A stretch of 64,000 nucleotides of DNA from Candidatus Omnitrophota bacterium (GCA_041662125.1 JBAZTA010000001.1:324761-388760), one strand, 5' to 3'; numbered from the stretch's first letter, positions 6,403 through 55,205 are shown. Notes: generated from the sequence alone by a model not told the origin. Made by a program: numbers and translations.

Positions 6403-6610
6403 ATACGAACAGCTTACATACCATTCATTACTTTAACAAAAAAGCTATCTTTCTACGGCCGAACCCGACTTAAAAAAACAATTTATGTATATTTATTATA
6501 CTACGCATCTTCTTTTATTTCAACAAATTAATGAAGCCATGACTTATGGAGCCATCAATTATAATTAAGCGACATAAGTCATCACTTGTAGCTTACTTGC
6601 CGGGCTGAAT

Positions 6611-6661
6611 TATCCTCCGTAGCCCTACCATCATTTTTCTTATCGATAGGCGCAGGAGGAT
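6611..6661. repeat. Repeat family C, copy 1: a stem-enclosed hairpin element about 50 nt long.
   Basis: The 40-nt core agccctaccatcatttttcttatcgataggcgcaggagga is 34/40 identical to 49574-49613. The flanking inverted repeat tcctccg/cgcaggagga covaries with ttcttcg/cgaagaa in copy 2. Confidence 0.6.
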
Positions 6662-6671
6662 CATGAAACCA

Positions 6672-42815: not shown

Positions 42816-42926
42816 ACGTTTATCTCCTTATTTCGGCAATCTAAGAAATTACTTTTCCTCTATGGTATAATTCTACCACAAAAAAAACTCTTATACGAGC
42901 CAATAACACAAGTGAAGGATTATCGA

Positions 42927-42979
42927 CTGCGCAGCACCCCAGCTAATAGGTATGCTGGGTGTGCCCTTTCTGGGCAAGT
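42927..42979. repeat. Repeat family B, copy 1: a two-hairpin element overlapping the 3' end of cca.
   Basis: ctgcgcagcaccccagct-aataggtat-gctgggtgtgccctttctgggcaag aligns with 54976-55029. Both stems, CCCAGC/GCTGGG and GCCC/GGGC, are preserved by compensatory changes. Confidence 0.55.
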
Positions 42980-44271
42980 TTTGCTAATTTGCGCACAAAC
43001 ATTAACTCCTCATGCCTGGTATGCAACTTACCATCCAGGCGGGCCTCTAAAACTTTTTTAAAGATGTACTGGTATGCCGGGCCAGGCGATACCCCAAACC
43101 CGCGCAAATCATGCCCAGACACAGCAATGCGCATCTCATTATGGATACTGATAAATTCATCGAGATACTGCCGAAAATTCTTATTCTTATATTTTGCCCG
43201 AAGCAAAATAATCTCTTCATAACTTAACGGCTCCAGTAACTTATAAATCCGGCTTGGCTTAACCTTAGGCTTACGTAACATCTGGAAATACTGCGGCCGG
43301 AACTGTTTAAAACTTAATATCTTTTTCCCCTCCGCCTTACGAAACACAAACTTTTCACAAATCGATTTTACCTGCGCTTCTCCCAAATGCTCCAAAAGCG
43401 CTATCAGGTATATTACCCAGACATCCAAGTGCCGACGGTGGTTATGATTCGCGGCAAACCAAGCAACTTCTTTATCAATTGCGGAAATAAGCCGGCAGGT
43501 CCCGGGAGCAAGGCAAAGGTGCGGGCTGATAAAATCCAAACATCGTAAATCCCGGATACGTTTCAACGGTTTCAGGGGAAATCGTTCTTTTAAGATCAGG
43601 ATCAGCTCATCACGCAGGCGCTGCGGTTGGATGCGCTGCAGGATGCGCTGCTTTGCCGCCCCCTTTAAAAGCGCCAAAGTTATGGGTTCTATCCGGAAAT
43701 TATACCTTTGCTCAAACCTGATCGCCCGTAAGATACGCGTCGGGTCATCAATAAAACTCTGTTCATGTAAAACACGTATCTTACCTGCCATGACATCGCT
43801 CTTACCGCCGCAAACGTCTATCAAAACTCCAAAATCACGAACAGAGATATTAATTGCCAATGAATTAATGGTAAAATCCCGCCGCACCAAATCATCTTCC
43901 AACACTCCTGCCCTGACTTCCGGAAGACTACCAGGATACGGATAGTCTTCTTTTCTGGTTGTAGCAATATCGACCTTAAGGTGAGGTTTTATGATGAGTG
44001 TCGCTGTTCCAAACCGGCGGTGAGCGATGACCTTAGCCCCGATCTTACTACCTAAGGCACGGGCAAACCTGATACCATCAGACTCAACCGCGATATCAAC
44101 ATCGAAATTCTTAACCCCTAAGATCAGATCCCGCACGAATCCGCCGACCAAAAAGACGCGGTAACCCAACTCAGTACTTACTTGCTGAGCGGAAAGAATA
44201 ATCTCCAGGATATCTGGCGGCAAGCGCTTTAAATACTCTTTCATTTTTCTTTTTATCCGTCCTTCAATCAC
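42943..44271 (-). CDS. cca: CCA-adding tRNA nucleotidyltransferase / poly(A) polymerase family, with a C-terminal HD domain.
   Basis: GGFVRDLILGVKNFDVDIAVE polymerase-beta motif and an RxxRF motif. The C-terminal ~12 codons overlap the repeat. Confidence 0.85.
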   Translation of the reverse strand: MIEGRIKRKMKEYLKRLPPDILEIILSAQQVSTELGYRVFLVGGFVRDLILGVKNFDVDIAVESDGIRFARALGSKIGAKVIAHRRFGTATLIIKPHLKVDIATTRKEDYPYPGSLPEVRAGVLEDDLVRRDFTINSLAINISVRDFGVLIDVCGGKSDVMAGKIRVLHEQSFIDDPTRILRAIRFEQRYNFRIEPITLALLKGAAKQRILQRIQPQRLRDELILILKERFPLKPLKRIRDLRCLDFISPHLCLAPGTCRLISAIDKEVAWFAANHNHRRHLDVWVIYLIALLEHLGEAQVKSICEKFVFRKAEGKKILSFKQFRPQYFQMLRKPKVKPSRIYKLLEPLSYEEIILLRAKYKNKNFRQYLDEFISIHNEMRIAVSGHDLRGFGVSPGPAYQYIFKKVLEARLDGKLHTRHEELMFVRKLAKLAQKGHTQHTY

Positions 44272-49454: not shown

Positions 49455-49563
49455 GAGACAATGGTATTTAAGGATAAAAAACTTATAAAGGCTGGATTAT
49501 ACACGCAGTCAAAACCAAAAGAAAGGTTTTTTCTTATCAAAATCTATGAAAAAGGGAACCGGC

Positions 49564-49613
49564 TATTCTTCGAAGCCCTACCATCATTTTACTTATTGAT
49601 GGGCGAAGAAGAA
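49564..49613. repeat. Repeat family C, copy 2, immediately 3' of tRNA-Pro.
   Basis: See the copy-1 alignment. It contains a CCATCA/TGATGG hairpin and a TTCTTCG/CGAAGAA enclosing stem. Confidence 0.6.
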
Positions 49614-49688
49614 TCGGGGCGACAGGACTTGAACCTGTGACCTCAACGTCCCGAACGTTGCGCTCTAGCCAAACTGAGCCACGCCCCG
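49614..49688 (-). tRNA. tRNA-Pro (anticodon CGG).
   Basis: Minus-strand sequence CGGGGCGUGGCUCAGUUUGGCUAGAGCGCAACGUUCGGGACGUUGAGGUCACAGGUUCAAGUCCUGUCGCCCCGA. It shows a 7-bp acceptor stem, D-stem GCUC/GAGC, anticodon loop UUCGGGA, T-loop UUCAAGU and discriminator A. Confidence 0.9.
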
Positions 49689-49769: not shown

Positions 49770-50369
49770 TTAGCAAGAATTAGCAGTTACTGCTCTTAAG
49801 GATTGTTTTTTCATCAACATATCATACTCAATATTAACCTGAGCAGAAGGGCCTTTAAAACTTAACGTTGTCAATGCCAAAGTATGGGGGATAATATTTA
49901 CACTGATACAATTTGCTTTTCTGCTGGCTATTGTCAAACTGATCCCGTCAACAGCGAGAGACCCCTTTGAGACGATAAAACTCTCGGCTTCTCTGGAAAC
50001 CGCTATCTCAAAAGTCACCGTATCATTACGGTGACTTTTCTTTCGTATAATGCCTACACAATCAATATGCCCGCTTACAAAATGCCCTGATAAGCGCTGA
50101 CCAACCTGCAGGCTGCGCTCAAGATTCACCTTCTCCATAATTTTCAATGTCCCCAAATTGGTCAAAGAAAGTGTCGCAGACATAACATCAAAACTAAGAG
50201 CATCCGCTTCTATCTTAACAACGGTCAAGCAAACACCGTTAACAGCAATACTATCGCCAATTTTAGTATCGGCAATTACCTTTTTTGCTGCAACGGTTAT
50301 CACGGCAACATTCCCGCACCGCGCAATTTTCTTAACCTGCCCTAATTCTTCAACTATTCCTGTGAACAT
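49770..50369 (-). CDS. ribE: Riboflavin synthase alpha chain.
   Basis: MFTGIVEELGQV N-terminus and duplicated lumazine-binding repeats. Confidence 0.9.
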   Translation of the reverse strand: MFTGIVEELGQVKKIARCGNVAVITVAAKKVIADTKIGDSIAVNGVCLTVVKIEADALSFDVMSATLSLTNLGTLKIMEKVNLERSLQVGQRLSGHFVSGHIDCVGIIRKKSHRNDTVTFEIAVSREAESFIVSKGSLAVDGISLTIASRKANCISVNIIPHTLALTTLSFKGPSAQVNIEYDMLMKKQSLRAVTANSC

Positions 50370-50370
50370 A

Positions 50371-50506
50371 GTGAGGCCACATCTTACGTCGCCTTTTGGC
50401 GACGTAAGATGTCTCCTGTCATTTTACTTATCGGGCCGAACTATCCTGCGTAGCTCCACCGCAGCTTTGTTTGTAAACGAGCGAAGCAGGATAATGAAAC
50501 TATCCC
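50371..50506. repeat. Repeat family A, copy 1: a two-hairpin element of about 135 nt abutting the ribE start codon.
   Basis: Nearly identical to 54650-54777. Hairpin 1 is a 15-bp perfect palindrome, acatcttacgtcgcc-tttt-ggcgacgtaagatgt; hairpin 2 is the ~17-bp imperfect inverted repeat actatcctgcgtagctc...gagcgaagcaggataat. Confidence 0.8.
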
Positions 50507-53436: not shown

Positions 53437-54648
53437 TTAGGTAATCGTAATCTGATGCCCGAGCTTCTCTTTTTTTGTCTTAAGATATTTATAATTAAGG
53501 GGATTTGGTTCAATTTCAAGGGCAATGCGCTCCACGACTTTTAATCCATAGCCCTCTAACCCCACGATCTTACGAGGATTATTCGTAATAAGCTTTATAT
53601 TCTTAAGCCCCAGGTCAACCAATATCTGTGCGCCGATTCCGTAATCACGCAAATCCGCTTTATGGCCTAACGCTTCATTTGCCTCAACAGTATCCATCCC
53701 TTTATCCTGCAAATTATATGCGCGTATTTTATCAACTAATCCTATACCGCGGCCTTCCTGGTTCATATAGAGGATAACACCTTTTTTTTCTTTCTCGATC
53801 ATCTGCATCGCGGTCTTAAGCTGCCTGCCGCAATCACAACGCAGCGACCCGAAAACATCACCGGTCAAACATTCTGAATGAACACGGACTGCTACCGGCT
53901 GGCTTTCACAATTACCCATTACTAAAGCAACATGGACTTGATTACGGGTGAGGTCTTTATACACGATCAACTGATACGTACCGTATTCAGTCGGAAGGAC
54001 AGTTTCAGAAGCCCGCTCGATCAATCGTTCAGAACGGCGGCGGTATTCAATCAGCTGAGCAATTGAAGATATCTTGAGACTATGTTTCCTGGCAAACGCT
54101 AAAAGCTGCGGCAGGCGTGCCATAGACCCGTCATCGTTCATGATCTCACAAATAACCCCCGCGGGATAAAGCCCTGCCAAACGCATCATATCTACCGTCG
54201 CTTCAGTATGTCCGGCCCTGACTAAAACACCGCCGCGGCGCGCCATTAAAGGAAAAACATGTCCCGGCCGGATTAAATCTTCCGGTTTGGACTGTGGATT
54301 AATCAGCACTTCAATGGTTCGCGCCCGGTCAAATGCCGAAATACCGGTTGTCACCCCTACTGCCGCATCAACAGAGATCATCCAAGCAGTAGAAAATGAA
54401 TCTGACTGTCGTACTAATCTGCGCGTCTCCTGCATCGGCTGTAAATCCAACTGAGACAGCCGTTCTTCCTCCATAGGGATACAAATGAGCCCGCGGCCAT
54501 AGGAAGCCATGAAATTGATATCCTGAGGCTTAACAAACGAGGCTGCCATAACCAGGTCGCCTTCATTCTCACGGTCTTCATCATCTACAACTACGACCAG
54601 CTTGCCTTTTTTTAAATCATCTAATATTTCCGGGATCGAATTTAACAT
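53437..54648 (-). CDS. ribBA: Bifunctional 3,4-dihydroxy-2-butanone-4-phosphate synthase / GTP cyclohydrolase II. The start is trimmed to MLNSIPEIL because the upstream 30 codons translate the repeat.
   Basis: DHBP synthase motifs (DEDRENEGDL) and GCH-II cysteines CDCG. Confidence 0.9.
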   Translation of the reverse strand: MLNSIPEILDDLKKGKLVVVVDDEDRENEGDLVMAASFVKPQDINFMASYGRGLICIPMEEERLSQLDLQPMQETRRLVRQSDSFSTAWMISVDAAVGVTTGISAFDRARTIEVLINPQSKPEDLIRPGHVFPLMARRGGVLVRAGHTEATVDMMRLAGLYPAGVICEIMNDDGSMARLPQLLAFARKHSLKISSIAQLIEYRRRSERLIERASETVLPTEYGTYQLIVYKDLTRNQVHVALVMGNCESQPVAVRVHSECLTGDVFGSLRCDCGRQLKTAMQMIEKEKKGVILYMNQEGRGIGLVDKIRAYNLQDKGMDTVEANEALGHKADLRDYGIGAQILVDLGLKNIKLITNNPRKIVGLEGYGLKVVERIALEIEPNPLNYKYLKTKKEKLGHQITIT

Positions 54649-54649
54649 A

Positions 54650-54777
54650 GTGAGGCCACATCTTACGTCGCCTTTTGGCGACGTAAGATGTCTCTTGTAA
54701 TTTAACTTATCGGGCCGAACTATCCTGCGTAGCTCCACCGCAACTTTTCTTATTTACGAGCGAAGCAGGATAGTGAG
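54650..54777. repeat. Repeat family A, copy 2 (full), abutting the ribBA start codon.
   Basis: gtgaggccacatcttacgtcgccttttggcgacgtaagatgtctc...actatcctgcgtagctccaccgca...gagcgaagcaggatagt. The 11 nt before the ATG (gtggcctcact) are identical to those at ribE. Confidence 0.8.
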
Positions 54778-54820: not shown

Positions 54821-54890
54821 GTCGGTTCGAACTATCCTGCGTAGCTCCACCGCAACTTTTCTTATTTACGAGCGAAGCAGGATAGTGAAA
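54821..54890. repeat. Repeat family A, partial copy 3 (hairpin 2 only).
   Basis: tcggttcgaactatcctgcgtagctccaccgcaacttttcttatttacgagcgaagcaggatagtg. Confidence 0.75.
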
Positions 54891-54900
54891 CCACCTATAA

Positions 54901-54928
54901 AAATAAAACCCGAAGGAAAATCTTCGGG
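54901..54928 (-). terminator. Rho-independent terminator, the expression platform of the FMN riboswitch.
   Basis: The minus strand reads CCCGAAG-AUUUUC-CUUCGGG followed by UUUUAUUUUU. Confidence 0.75.
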
Positions 54929-54940
54929 TAATAGAATATA

Positions 54941-55168
54941 CCTTAATCTTCTTTCATCTGGACTTTAACCACCTACTGCGCAGCACCCAGCCATAAATGA
55001 TTGGCTGGTATGCCACTTTCTGTGGCACCATCGGCTCTGGAATTTAACCAGATCTGTATTCTGCTTGTGCAGAATACTCGCGGGCTATTACACCCGGCGT
55101 TATTGGAAACGCCGGTGTGCGCCTTTTGCGCTACCGCCGGTTAGGAATTACACCTTACCCCGAAGATC
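54941..55168 (-). promoter_or_regulatory. FMN riboswitch (RFN element) aptamer, unusually long because of inserted hairpins.
   Basis: The minus strand reads GAUCUUCGGGGUAAGGUGUAAUUCCUAACCGGCGGUAG...AGCCCGCGAG...AGCAGA...GGUUAAAUUCCAGAGCCGAUGGUG...AAAGUCCAGAUGAAAGAAGAU, matching the RFN consensus. Confidence 0.85.
54976..55029. repeat. Repeat family B, copy 2, located inside the FMN aptamer's 3' variable region.
   Basis: ctgcgcagcacccagccataaatgattggctggtatgccactttctgtggcacc, with stems CCAGCC/GGCTGG and GCCAC/GTGGC. Confidence 0.55.
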
Positions 55169-55177
55169 AATTCAGTA

Positions 55178-55205
55178 AGTATACCACAAAATCTTGTCTT
55201 GTCAA
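55178..55205 (-). promoter_or_regulatory. Sigma70-type promoter of the rib operon.
   Basis: The minus strand reads TTGACA-N16-TATACT, about 10 nt upstream of the aptamer 5' end. Confidence 0.6.

Follow-up and report, generated by a model that had tools for sequence, protein, structure and literature searches.

A two-hairpin interspersed repeat at the 3' end of cca and in the P3 and P6 loops of an FMN riboswitch in an Omnitrophota lineage

The window analysed here, a stretch of 64,000 nucleotides from a Candidatus Omnitrophota bacterium, raises the question of whether two short sequences, one at the 3' end of cca and one in an FMN riboswitch, are copies of the same structured element. A preliminary description had placed these copies at positions 42927-42979 and 54976-55029, and direct reading of the sequence showed both to be present there. 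Both are minus-strand features and run in the sense direction of their host transcripts. When the stems were read side by side, the differences that had been noted between them proved to be correct and fully compensated. The first hairpin (h1) is GCCAC/GUGGC in the riboswitch copy as against GCCC/GGGC in the cca copy, and the second hairpin (h2) is CCAGCC/GGCUGG as against CCCAGC/GCUGGG. On the minus strand, the cca copy reads UUGCCCAGAAAGGGCACACCCAGCAUACCUAUUAGCUGGGGUGCU and then GCGCAGU, and the riboswitch copy, which lies in the P6 loop, reads UGCCACAGAAAGUGGCAUACCAGCCAAUCAUUUAUGGCUGGGUGCU and then GCGCAGUAGGUGGU.

In a BLAST comparison of the window with itself, the alignment of the two copies spans 55 columns, contains 6 gaps and reaches 78% identity (29.2 bits, E-value of 12). 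This alignment took rank 97 in a list in which pairs are counted twice, so that some 45-50 other pairs in the window score equally. Likewise, a 13-mer common to two sites is within the chance expectation for the window. The pair is thus at chance level in the self-comparison, and sequence identity alone cannot carry the claim. The fold energies of the copies were also unremarkable when taken alone (z-scores of -1.4 to -2.6), and the minimum free energy fold of the P6 copy prefers a long irregular hairpin that uses the tail behind the unit. This fold was rejected, because the comparative data favour a two-hairpin unit and identify the tail as a truncated second unit.

We therefore rely on a covariance model, R1, that was built from 14 units of other genomes only and holds zero window sequence. 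With the filters off, R1 found exactly three matches in the 64-kb window (Table 1), as compared to a best noise score of 8.2 bits. Scores of 35-36 bits for the cca and P6 copies against this 8-bit noise confirm the observation independently of the window sequence, and both sequences are genuine copies of a dispersed two-hairpin repeat. The third match, which is absent from the preliminary description and scores best of the three, is located in the P3 apical loop of the same aptamer and reads GCGC-AAAAG-GCGC, ACA, CCGGCG-UUUCCAAUAA-CGCCGG and GUG. Many further copies were found with covariance models in related genomes and metagenomes.

Table 1. Positions of the features in the window and in related or metagenomic loci (L numbers).
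Feature	Location	Strand or orientation	Details
cca (CCA-adding enzyme, PolyA_pol family, PF01743)	42943..44244	-	433-aa product exactly on record
Repeat unit, cca 3' end	42933..42977	-	R1 36.1 bits, E ~2e-7; R2 48.9 bits
cca copy, h1	42975-42963	-	GCCC-AGAAA-GGGC; linker ACA next
cca copy, h2	42961-42935	-	CA-CCCAGC, loop AUACCUAUUA, GCUGGG, bulged G, UG
cca copy, tail CUGCGCAGU	42926..42934	-	spacer and GCGCAG, the h1 start of a truncated second tandem unit
FMN riboswitch aptamer (RF00050)	55171..54942	-	89.2 bits vs gathering 66.2; model positions 1-138
Repeat unit, P3 apical loop	55089..55133	-	R1 61.5 bits, E ~6e-14
Repeat unit, P6 apical loop	54982..55027	-	R1 35.2 bits
P6 copy, h1	55026-55012	-	GCCAC-AGAAA-GUGGC; linker AUA next
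P6 copy, h2	55010-54984	-	CCAGCCA, loop AUCAUUUA, UGGCUGG, bulged G, UG
P6 copy, tail CUGCGCAGUAGGUGGU	54968..54983	-	truncated second unit, degenerate h1 only (alignment of window, L190 and L002)
Sigma-70-like promoter upstream of aptamer	55178..55205	-	TTGACA, 16 nt, TATACT; 11/12, TG; consensus match only
Intrinsic terminator, riboswitch expression platform	54908..54929	-	ACCCGAAG-AUUUUC-CUUCGGGU and U run
Family A copies	window: 6600-6666, 49553-49619, 50431-50497, 54710-54776, 54822-54888
Family A longer 133-nt pair	window: 50365-50497 / 54644-54776
Unit upstream of ligA	L002, 14 nt before start codon	antisense	window site empty
Unit downstream of ligA	L081	antisense	R1
Unit directly upstream of same tRNA	L036, L039, L042, L033	antisense	R1, orthologous position
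Unit between FMN aptamer and ribBA	L035	antisense	R1
Unit upstream of rbfA	L018	antisense	R1
FMN aptamers with 4-6 units	L124 5769-6054; L163 3401-3768		flanking core sequences canonical
Riboswitches below RF00050 gathering score	L002 2333-2590; L039 4385-4618; L013 4285-4495; L124, L163		23-30 bits (L124, L163)
Units abutting a Shine-Dalgarno sequence	L084, L094, L096, L109, L141, L142, L150, L162, L182, L196, L200 and others	antisense
CUUGCCA/CUGGCGC subfamily	L035 3520-3600; L036 9330-9417; L089, L112, L118, L126, L135, L143, L177, L201
Heptamer-array loci	L002 9880-10000; L092, L099, L104, L121, L178, L183, L195

The unit is about 41-45 nt long and comprises two unequal hairpins, of which h1 takes up 13 nt and h2 about 27 nt. 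It begins with h1, which has 4-5 base pairs and an A-rich loop of 4-5 nt (GCGC-AGAAA-GCGC in the commonest type), and continues with a linker A(C/U)A, usually ACA, the CC...GG stem of h2 and a final GUG. The h2 hairpin opens with CA-CC and closes with GG, a bulged G and UG, and its loop, which is 8-11 nt long in the aptamer inserts, has the consensus WUCMNNUW. The ends of the unit follow the consensus UU-GCGC...GGGUG-YW, with GGGUG and GCGCAG showing the strongest conservation in the family consensus. The 13 identical bases shared by the two copies (GGGUG-CU-GCGCAG) mark a junction, at which the conserved 3' terminus of a unit is followed, after a spacer, by the conserved beginning of another, truncated unit. 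The tail of the cca copy accounts, together with GGGUG, for an identity of 13-14 nt with the P6 copy, and both L190 and L002 carry a complete second unit at the position where the P6 tail stands in the window.

The preliminary description regarded the compensated differences as structural covariation, and this holds for both stems in larger alignments. Among 16 aligned units, 99% of the cells are paired, as compared to 20-35% when the 3' partner was slid by 1-3 columns as a control, and 10 of 13 pairs have changed on both sides, counts that partly represent shared ancestry, with the stem variants falling into a limited set of subfamilies. In a larger alignment of 23 sequences 98% of the cells are paired, and the slid controls taken together give 20-40%. 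The stems are 96% Watson-Crick (1137 Watson-Crick cells in alignment A6). Beyond the outermost (Y-G) pair, the mismatches G·U and A·C are equally rare (8 versus 9), and neither strand thus shows an RNA signature. By inspection, no consistent case of complementarity between the h1 and h2 loops was observed across the units, and a kissing pairing of the two loops was dropped for this reason. Readings as a K-turn, a tetraloop-receptor or a T-loop were set aside; the likeness of the h2 loop to a T-loop (UUCAAAU) is confined to some units, and a G·A tandem is lacking. In one subfamily, where h2 is CUUGCCA or CUGGCGC, an extra h2 3' half (…AGGUGCU) is found about 15-20 nt past the unit, and this extra half could pair alternatively with the 5' strand of h2 via G·U.

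Two of the three window units are hosted by an FMN aptamer that is otherwise intact. The order of features on the minus strand is promoter, FMN aptamer, terminator, ribBA, ribH, nusB, a gene for a PHP-domain protein, ribD and ribE, followed by a tRNA gene, a metallophosphoesterase gene, ligA, two further genes, xerD, cca, rbfA, nrnA and ribF. Alignment to RF00050 revealed insertions of 65 nt in the P6 apical loop (the last hairpin of the aptamer), most of which is the P6 unit, and of 44 nt in the P3 apical loop. The copy at 54976-55029, which had been assigned to the riboswitch, is thus indeed inside the P6-loop insertion of the aptamer. As it aligns with loop insertions in P3 and P6, the unit is not part of the conserved RF00050 architecture. 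In 15 related loci, the FMN riboswitches before ribBA have a P6 loop that is either plain, GGU(U)AAAGUCC, or insert-bearing; the P6 inserts share one module and the P3-loop inserts are the same module. The insertion points in P3 and P6 are structurally equivalent, being located between the conserved loop nucleotides GGU and AAAG(C/U)CC.

The two loops gain and lose units as a whole. Both P3 and P6 are empty and clean in 6 of 16 related riboswitches; both loops are unit-free in L046, L023, L006 and L015, and one loop is unit-free in others. Promoter, aptamer core and terminator are almost the same in the window, L190 and L002, but the number of P3 units is one, two and one, respectively; in P6, L190 and L002 have two units each and the window has one plus the truncated second. 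Across related riboswitches with the same core, the number of copies in P3 and P6 is 0, 1, 2, 4 or more. In the aptamer of L124, P3 holds four units, of which one is inserted into another's h2 loop, and P6 harbours an antisense unit; in L163, a sense and an antisense unit are adjacent in P6. By our own estimate, which is based on about 17 units in about 3 kb of aptamer versus 10 in about 270 kb, the per-base density of units in the FMN aptamer loops exceeds that in other DNA of the ligA loci by a factor of more than 100. Neutral tolerance alone does not explain this enrichment. It was also observed that FMN riboswitches with several units are missed or fragmented at the Rfam gathering thresholds. 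The five examples in Table 1 fall below the gathering score because of their unit inserts, which represents an annotation pitfall for this lineage.

The window LigA is 81% identical to that of the MAG SO_2017_LW4_142, and the best 80 related loci all belong to Omnitrophota MAGs. In the ligA-linked loci, which were not selected for units and come from named Omnitrophota genomes, 10 units were found outside riboswitches in about 270 kb, and all those identified with R1 are antisense to the local genes. The units upstream of the same tRNA have wholly different stems in L036 and L042. A pattern scan of metagenomes with the commonest h1 and the h2 flanks returned at least 120 stretches, and 78 of the 127 matches listed have a paired h2, about 11 of these 78 being situated in FMN aptamers. 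Model R2, applied to the 120 metagenome loci listed, detected about 90 units that score 30 bits or more in one set of 100 loci and about 25 in the other 20; it should be noted that these more than 115 units come from about 0.77 Mb of pattern-selected loci and represent an enriched sample. The metagenome units are often clustered in mixed orientation, as in L103, L110, L124 and L163, and the arrangements seen include singles, direct tandems, inverted pairs and one unit nested inside another. In viral contigs, 10 pattern matches included no true unit (26 bits or less). At gathering thresholds, Rfam 15 recognised only FMN and tRNA in the window and matched the unit on neither strand. In eight unit-rich loci, with E-values of up to 1, the only Rfam matches were tRNA, fragmented FMN and a sub-threshold NsiR1 adjoining a unit. 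One subclass of units sits within short heptamer-like arrays on both sides (TCGGTTA, TCGGTGC or TCGGTGG), and this subclass may be a larger composite element.

The orientation of the units depends on their surroundings. Inside aptamers about 26 of 28 units are sense, whereas a crude ORF-based count of 68 units at other sites puts about 46 antisense to their neighbours and about 20 sense. Among the matches listed with a paired h2, 27 of 78 directly abut the sequence CAT-N(4-11)-CTCC at their 5' end. This motif represents, on the opposite strand, the Shine-Dalgarno sequence and the start codon of a gene. The genes that follow such units are diverse housekeeping genes, including rpmH, ribH, purE, trpB, argC, a glnB-like gene and phoU. 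At several loci, the stop codon of the upstream ORF is found -2 to +25 nt from the other end of the unit, which then fills the intercistronic gap. About one third of the non-riboswitch copies are antisense and exactly abut a Shine-Dalgarno sequence, often with the upstream stop codon a few bases from their other end, which gives a cassette of stop codon, reverse-complemented unit, AAGGAG and ATG. The non-random orientation and placement could be due to selection on the RNA instead of passive insertion. In the sense orientation, the unit is not an intrinsic terminator, as h2 is not followed by a U run.

At the other site in the window, the preliminary description had the repeat overlapping the last ~12 codons of cca. 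The copy does cover the end of this gene and its stop codon, the number of codons being 11 rather than 12. Codons 423-433 and the stop are inside the unit, and the reading frame runs from ...RKLAK through h1 into the h2 loop, which adds the tail LAQKGHTQHTY*. The stop codon UAG (42945-42943) lies across the boundary between the h2 loop and the h2 3' strand, of which it takes the first base. Orthologues of Cca end near ...EEL-L-KKL(I/V)K, which is followed by unrelated tails of 0-20 residues. It had been proposed to compare the C-terminus with such orthologues, and this comparison showed that the last 11 residues are read from the element, the tails of the orthologues being unrelated and variable. 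The closest relative, L002, whose Cca is 78% identical, has the different tail PYLTQTHKY*. No intact unit was found at the 3' end of the L002 cca (covariance-model score of 5 bits), and a degenerate unit at this site was rejected since the score is 5 bits only. The most suitable reading of the overlap is that a freely varying tail has tolerated an insertion, by which the repeat has rewritten the C-terminal end of an essential enzyme. At the cca copy, a terminator-like call was obtained on the opposite strand only, and it is weak.

Some further observations concern this gene and its surroundings. The Cca tails of the window and L002 show a faint likeness (LxQ..HxY*). The mechanically called cca ORF starts with GTG 44271, which is the last base of the xerD stop codon. 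The true start is likely ATG 44244, as the resulting 433-aa product stands in the public assembly Logan SRR18595301, where it is carried by a 4-kb contig that is identical to the window; two further look-ups by exact protein sequence gave no match. The cca-rbfA spacer measures about 590 nt in L018 compared to 127 nt in the window (42926-42815). In L018 (7676-8270), this gap contains a degenerate unit of 20-23 bits in the opposite orientation, just before the start of rbfA.

The repeat of about 45 bases is, to judge by Rfam and the papers searched, previously undescribed; none of these papers connects Omnitrophota with repeats of this kind, or REP-like insertions with the loops of riboswitches. 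The unit resembles REP and BIME sequences (PMC3733652), which are likewise short, GC-rich, hairpin-forming interspersed repeats that are mostly located between co-directional ORFs, occur in either orientation as singles, tandems, inverted doublets and occasional intragenic copies, and have stems that covary between subfamilies while the structure is kept. REP sequences are single imperfect palindromes of 20-40 bp that bear the unpaired GTAG/CGTC tag of the REP superfamilies at one end (PMC3733652), whereas our unit has two unequal hairpins in about 45 nt, and GTAG and CGTC are absent from its consensus on either strand. The REP trait of dispersed copies that are mostly extragenic, in both orientations and often clustered is nevertheless displayed by the unit. 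Further differences are that no RAYT gene was seen in the loci searched, that the loops of a structured RNA are a hot spot, and that many units abut the downstream Shine-Dalgarno sequence and not the 3' end of the upstream gene. The unit acts like a REP or MITE, yet it belongs to neither family: it is outside REP for lack of a single palindrome and a GTAG/CGTC tag, and outside MITE for lack of terminal inverted repeats, the 5' GCGCAG and 3' GGGUG not being complementary and the hairpins being internal.

The RPE repeats of Rickettsia are palindromic and about 100-150 bp long, and they reportedly insert in frame and non-destructively into protein genes and structured RNA genes. In this respect, the cca tail and the riboswitch loops behave as RPE hosts do, but the lineage is unrelated, there is no sequence similarity, and the coding insertion seen here replaces a C-terminal tail only. 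The ends of IS200/IS605 elements are imperfect hairpins in which an extrahelical base and conserved flanks are recognised, and these elements are not known to have terminal inverted repeats or an obvious target duplication. The unit is similar in having hairpins with a bulged base and conserved flanks and in lacking terminal inverted repeats, and the clean P3 and P6 loops would be in keeping with an excision by which the empty site stays intact. It differs in that no TnpA, TnpB or RAYT is linked to the copies examined, that it is much shorter than the known minimal derivatives, and that no target tetranucleotide is defined. Lastly, Rfam allows inserts of variable length in the P3 extension of RF00050 at the same insertion point (GGU / AAG(C)CC). 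In the present case, however, the insert is a discrete repeated unit that also occurs in P6, in copy numbers from 0 to at least 4, that can be inverted or nested, and that is found at many sites other than riboswitches.

No mobilising enzyme was detected beside the copies examined. When all ORFs of 80 aa or more from 1.9 Mb of loci were compared by phmmer with an IS200-type TnpA, one match was obtained, at a locus that had matched the pattern by chance. This IS200-type TnpA ORF (L122 3619-4110, E-value of 5e-62) is on a GC-rich metagenome contig and unrelated to the repeat family. The idea that the units are ends of insertion sequences was rejected, since the genes after the units that abut a Shine-Dalgarno sequence are diverse housekeeping genes and no transposases, and since the ORFs inside an inverted pair in L090 are rplM and rpsI. 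The flanks of the units are T-rich with the pyrimidine first, and rich in TT or TA. Identical flanking dinucleotides, which could be weak evidence of a target-site duplication, were observed for 26 of 107 units where 15 were expected, but the context of stop codons and Shine-Dalgarno sequences also explains these flanks.

Several explanations for the two copies need to be weighed. There is next to no probability that the similarity of two GC-rich, hairpin-forming stretches arose by chance: the BLAST E-value and rank (with pairs counted double) and the modest fold z-scores would be compatible with it, but it is refuted by the scores of the independent covariance model, which are far beyond the noise ceiling, and by more than 100 further members with the same architecture. 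A single duplication event that brought the P6 segment to the cca end over a distance of 12 kb, instead of membership in a dispersed family, is also highly improbable. The longest identical stretch, GGGUG-CU-GCGCAGU, with its common spacer and truncated second unit would suggest such an event. Yet GGGUG and GCGCAG are the parts that are conserved throughout the family and CU spacers between units occur elsewhere, for example in L093, while the stems differ at 3 of 6 h2 pairs, the cca h2 loop ACCUAUUA is nearer to that of the P6 unit in L035 (UUCCUAUA) than to that of the P6 unit in the window, and many copies reside at unrelated loci. A recruited structural or protein-binding module, selected as sense RNA in the aptamer and in the cca mRNA, where it would stabilise the P3-P5 and P2-P6 domains or bind a common protein, seems unlikely to us. 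This explanation is favoured by the pseudo-symmetric positions and the predominant sense orientation in the aptamer, by the persistence of units across genera with LigA proteins that are only 62-69% identical, and by the conserved linker, flanks and h2 loop consensus; moreover, 4 of 23 units in alignment A5 have U·G as their outermost h2 pair, and counting this pair adds 12 sense-strand G·U in alignment A6. Nonetheless, riboswitches that share a core may or may not carry the unit, aptamers can contain antisense and nested units, most members of the family are outside riboswitches, the h1 and h2 loops lack complementarity, and there is no Rfam match. The preliminary description had mentioned a protein-binding module as an alternative, and nothing that we found requires such a role.

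A possible, if doubtful, explanation is that the unit is a functional RNA element of operon mRNAs in the complementary orientation. It would then be an intercistronic hairpin module, the mRNA reading stop codon, CACCC-h2'-GGUGUGCGC-UUUCU-GCGC, AAGGAG and AUG, that protects mRNA ends or keeps the Shine-Dalgarno sequence clear of upstream pairing, the riboswitch and cca copies being by-products of its spread. The abutment of units on the Shine-Dalgarno sequences of diverse housekeeping genes, the proximity of upstream stop codons at several loci and the antisense excess among the non-riboswitch copies all point in this direction, and REP sequences are reported to be situated mostly between unidirectional ORFs and to function as RNA elements (PMC3733652). 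On the other hand, about 20 of the 68 non-riboswitch copies, nearly all riboswitch copies and the cca copy have the opposite orientation. In addition, selection on the complementary RNA would give an excess of A·C over G·U in the sense of the element, which is not seen. Such a function would be compatible with mobility at the DNA level and would add to it. Altogether, we consider it likely that the units are a REP/MITE-like interspersed repeat of one Omnitrophota lineage that spreads at the DNA level and is tolerated in the P3 and P6 loops. The occurrence of both orientations, the nested and tandem insertions, the differences in unit number and the absence of a G·U bias make this mobile DNA-level reading the best fit, and of the possibilities raised earlier, the one of a small mobile or recruited structured element is thereby supported. 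The bias in orientation and the exact stop-to-Shine-Dalgarno fit leave room for an RNA-level role in operons or in stabilising the aptamer.

The mechanism of transposition and the neutrality of the units in the riboswitch are what we infer from these patterns. By analogy, a trans-acting enzyme may recognise the folded hairpins, with their bulged base and conserved flanks, on single-stranded DNA. If true, this would explain why the stems covary and yet are strictly Watson-Crick on both strands. The family is gained and lost as whole units, in either orientation, as tandems or inverted pairs, or within the loop of a further unit. At the P3 and P6 apical loops, the extra helices point away from the ligand-binding core, and the units would be tolerated passengers that leave the aptamer, promoter and terminator intact. 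At cca, a unit would have landed in sense orientation at the end of the gene, with translation proceeding through h1 to the UAG in the h2 loop and thereby producing the 11-residue tail.

Somewhat speculatively, and with a rather low probability in our judgement, the repeat may be more than selfish DNA and represent either a mobilisation that targets loops or a domesticated RNA module of dual use. In the former case, the mechanism could hit the single-stranded loops of extruded hairpins, which, if true, would account for the P3 and P6 loops, the nested insertion in an h2 loop and the strict orientation per class of site. In the latter case, one orientation could lengthen the peripheral helices of the FMN aptamer and make them more rigid, and the other could be an intercistronic cassette of stop codon, hairpins and Shine-Dalgarno sequence that sets mRNA stability or translation in Omnitrophota operons.

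The present family is a clear natural case of a repeat that has repeatedly colonised a riboswitch aptamer without destroying its consensus, the colonised positions being two structurally equivalent loops with up to at least 4 units, some of them nested or inverted. This marks where the FMN aptamer takes large insertions, which may be of use in riboswitch engineering. Furthermore, an uncultured phylum gains a REP-like family with an unusual and precise placement between stop codon and Shine-Dalgarno sequence, which could be exploited for studies on the processing of operon mRNAs or on a new hairpin-recognising transposition system.

The window also contains a second repeat family ("family A") with five copies, each of which is about 67 nt in length and takes the shape of a long hairpin, CTATCCTGCGTAGC...GCGAAGCAGGATAG. 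Two direct copies, with starts 112 nt apart, are located between the FMN terminator and the ribBA start, another is situated between ribD and ribE, and a further one lies directly against the 3' end of the tRNA gene. The long ribBA ORF (GTG 54738) runs into a family A repeat, and the start of ribBA is likely ATG 54648. In some copies, the string GGTTCGAAC...GCTCCACC of family A resembles the 3' half of a tRNA.
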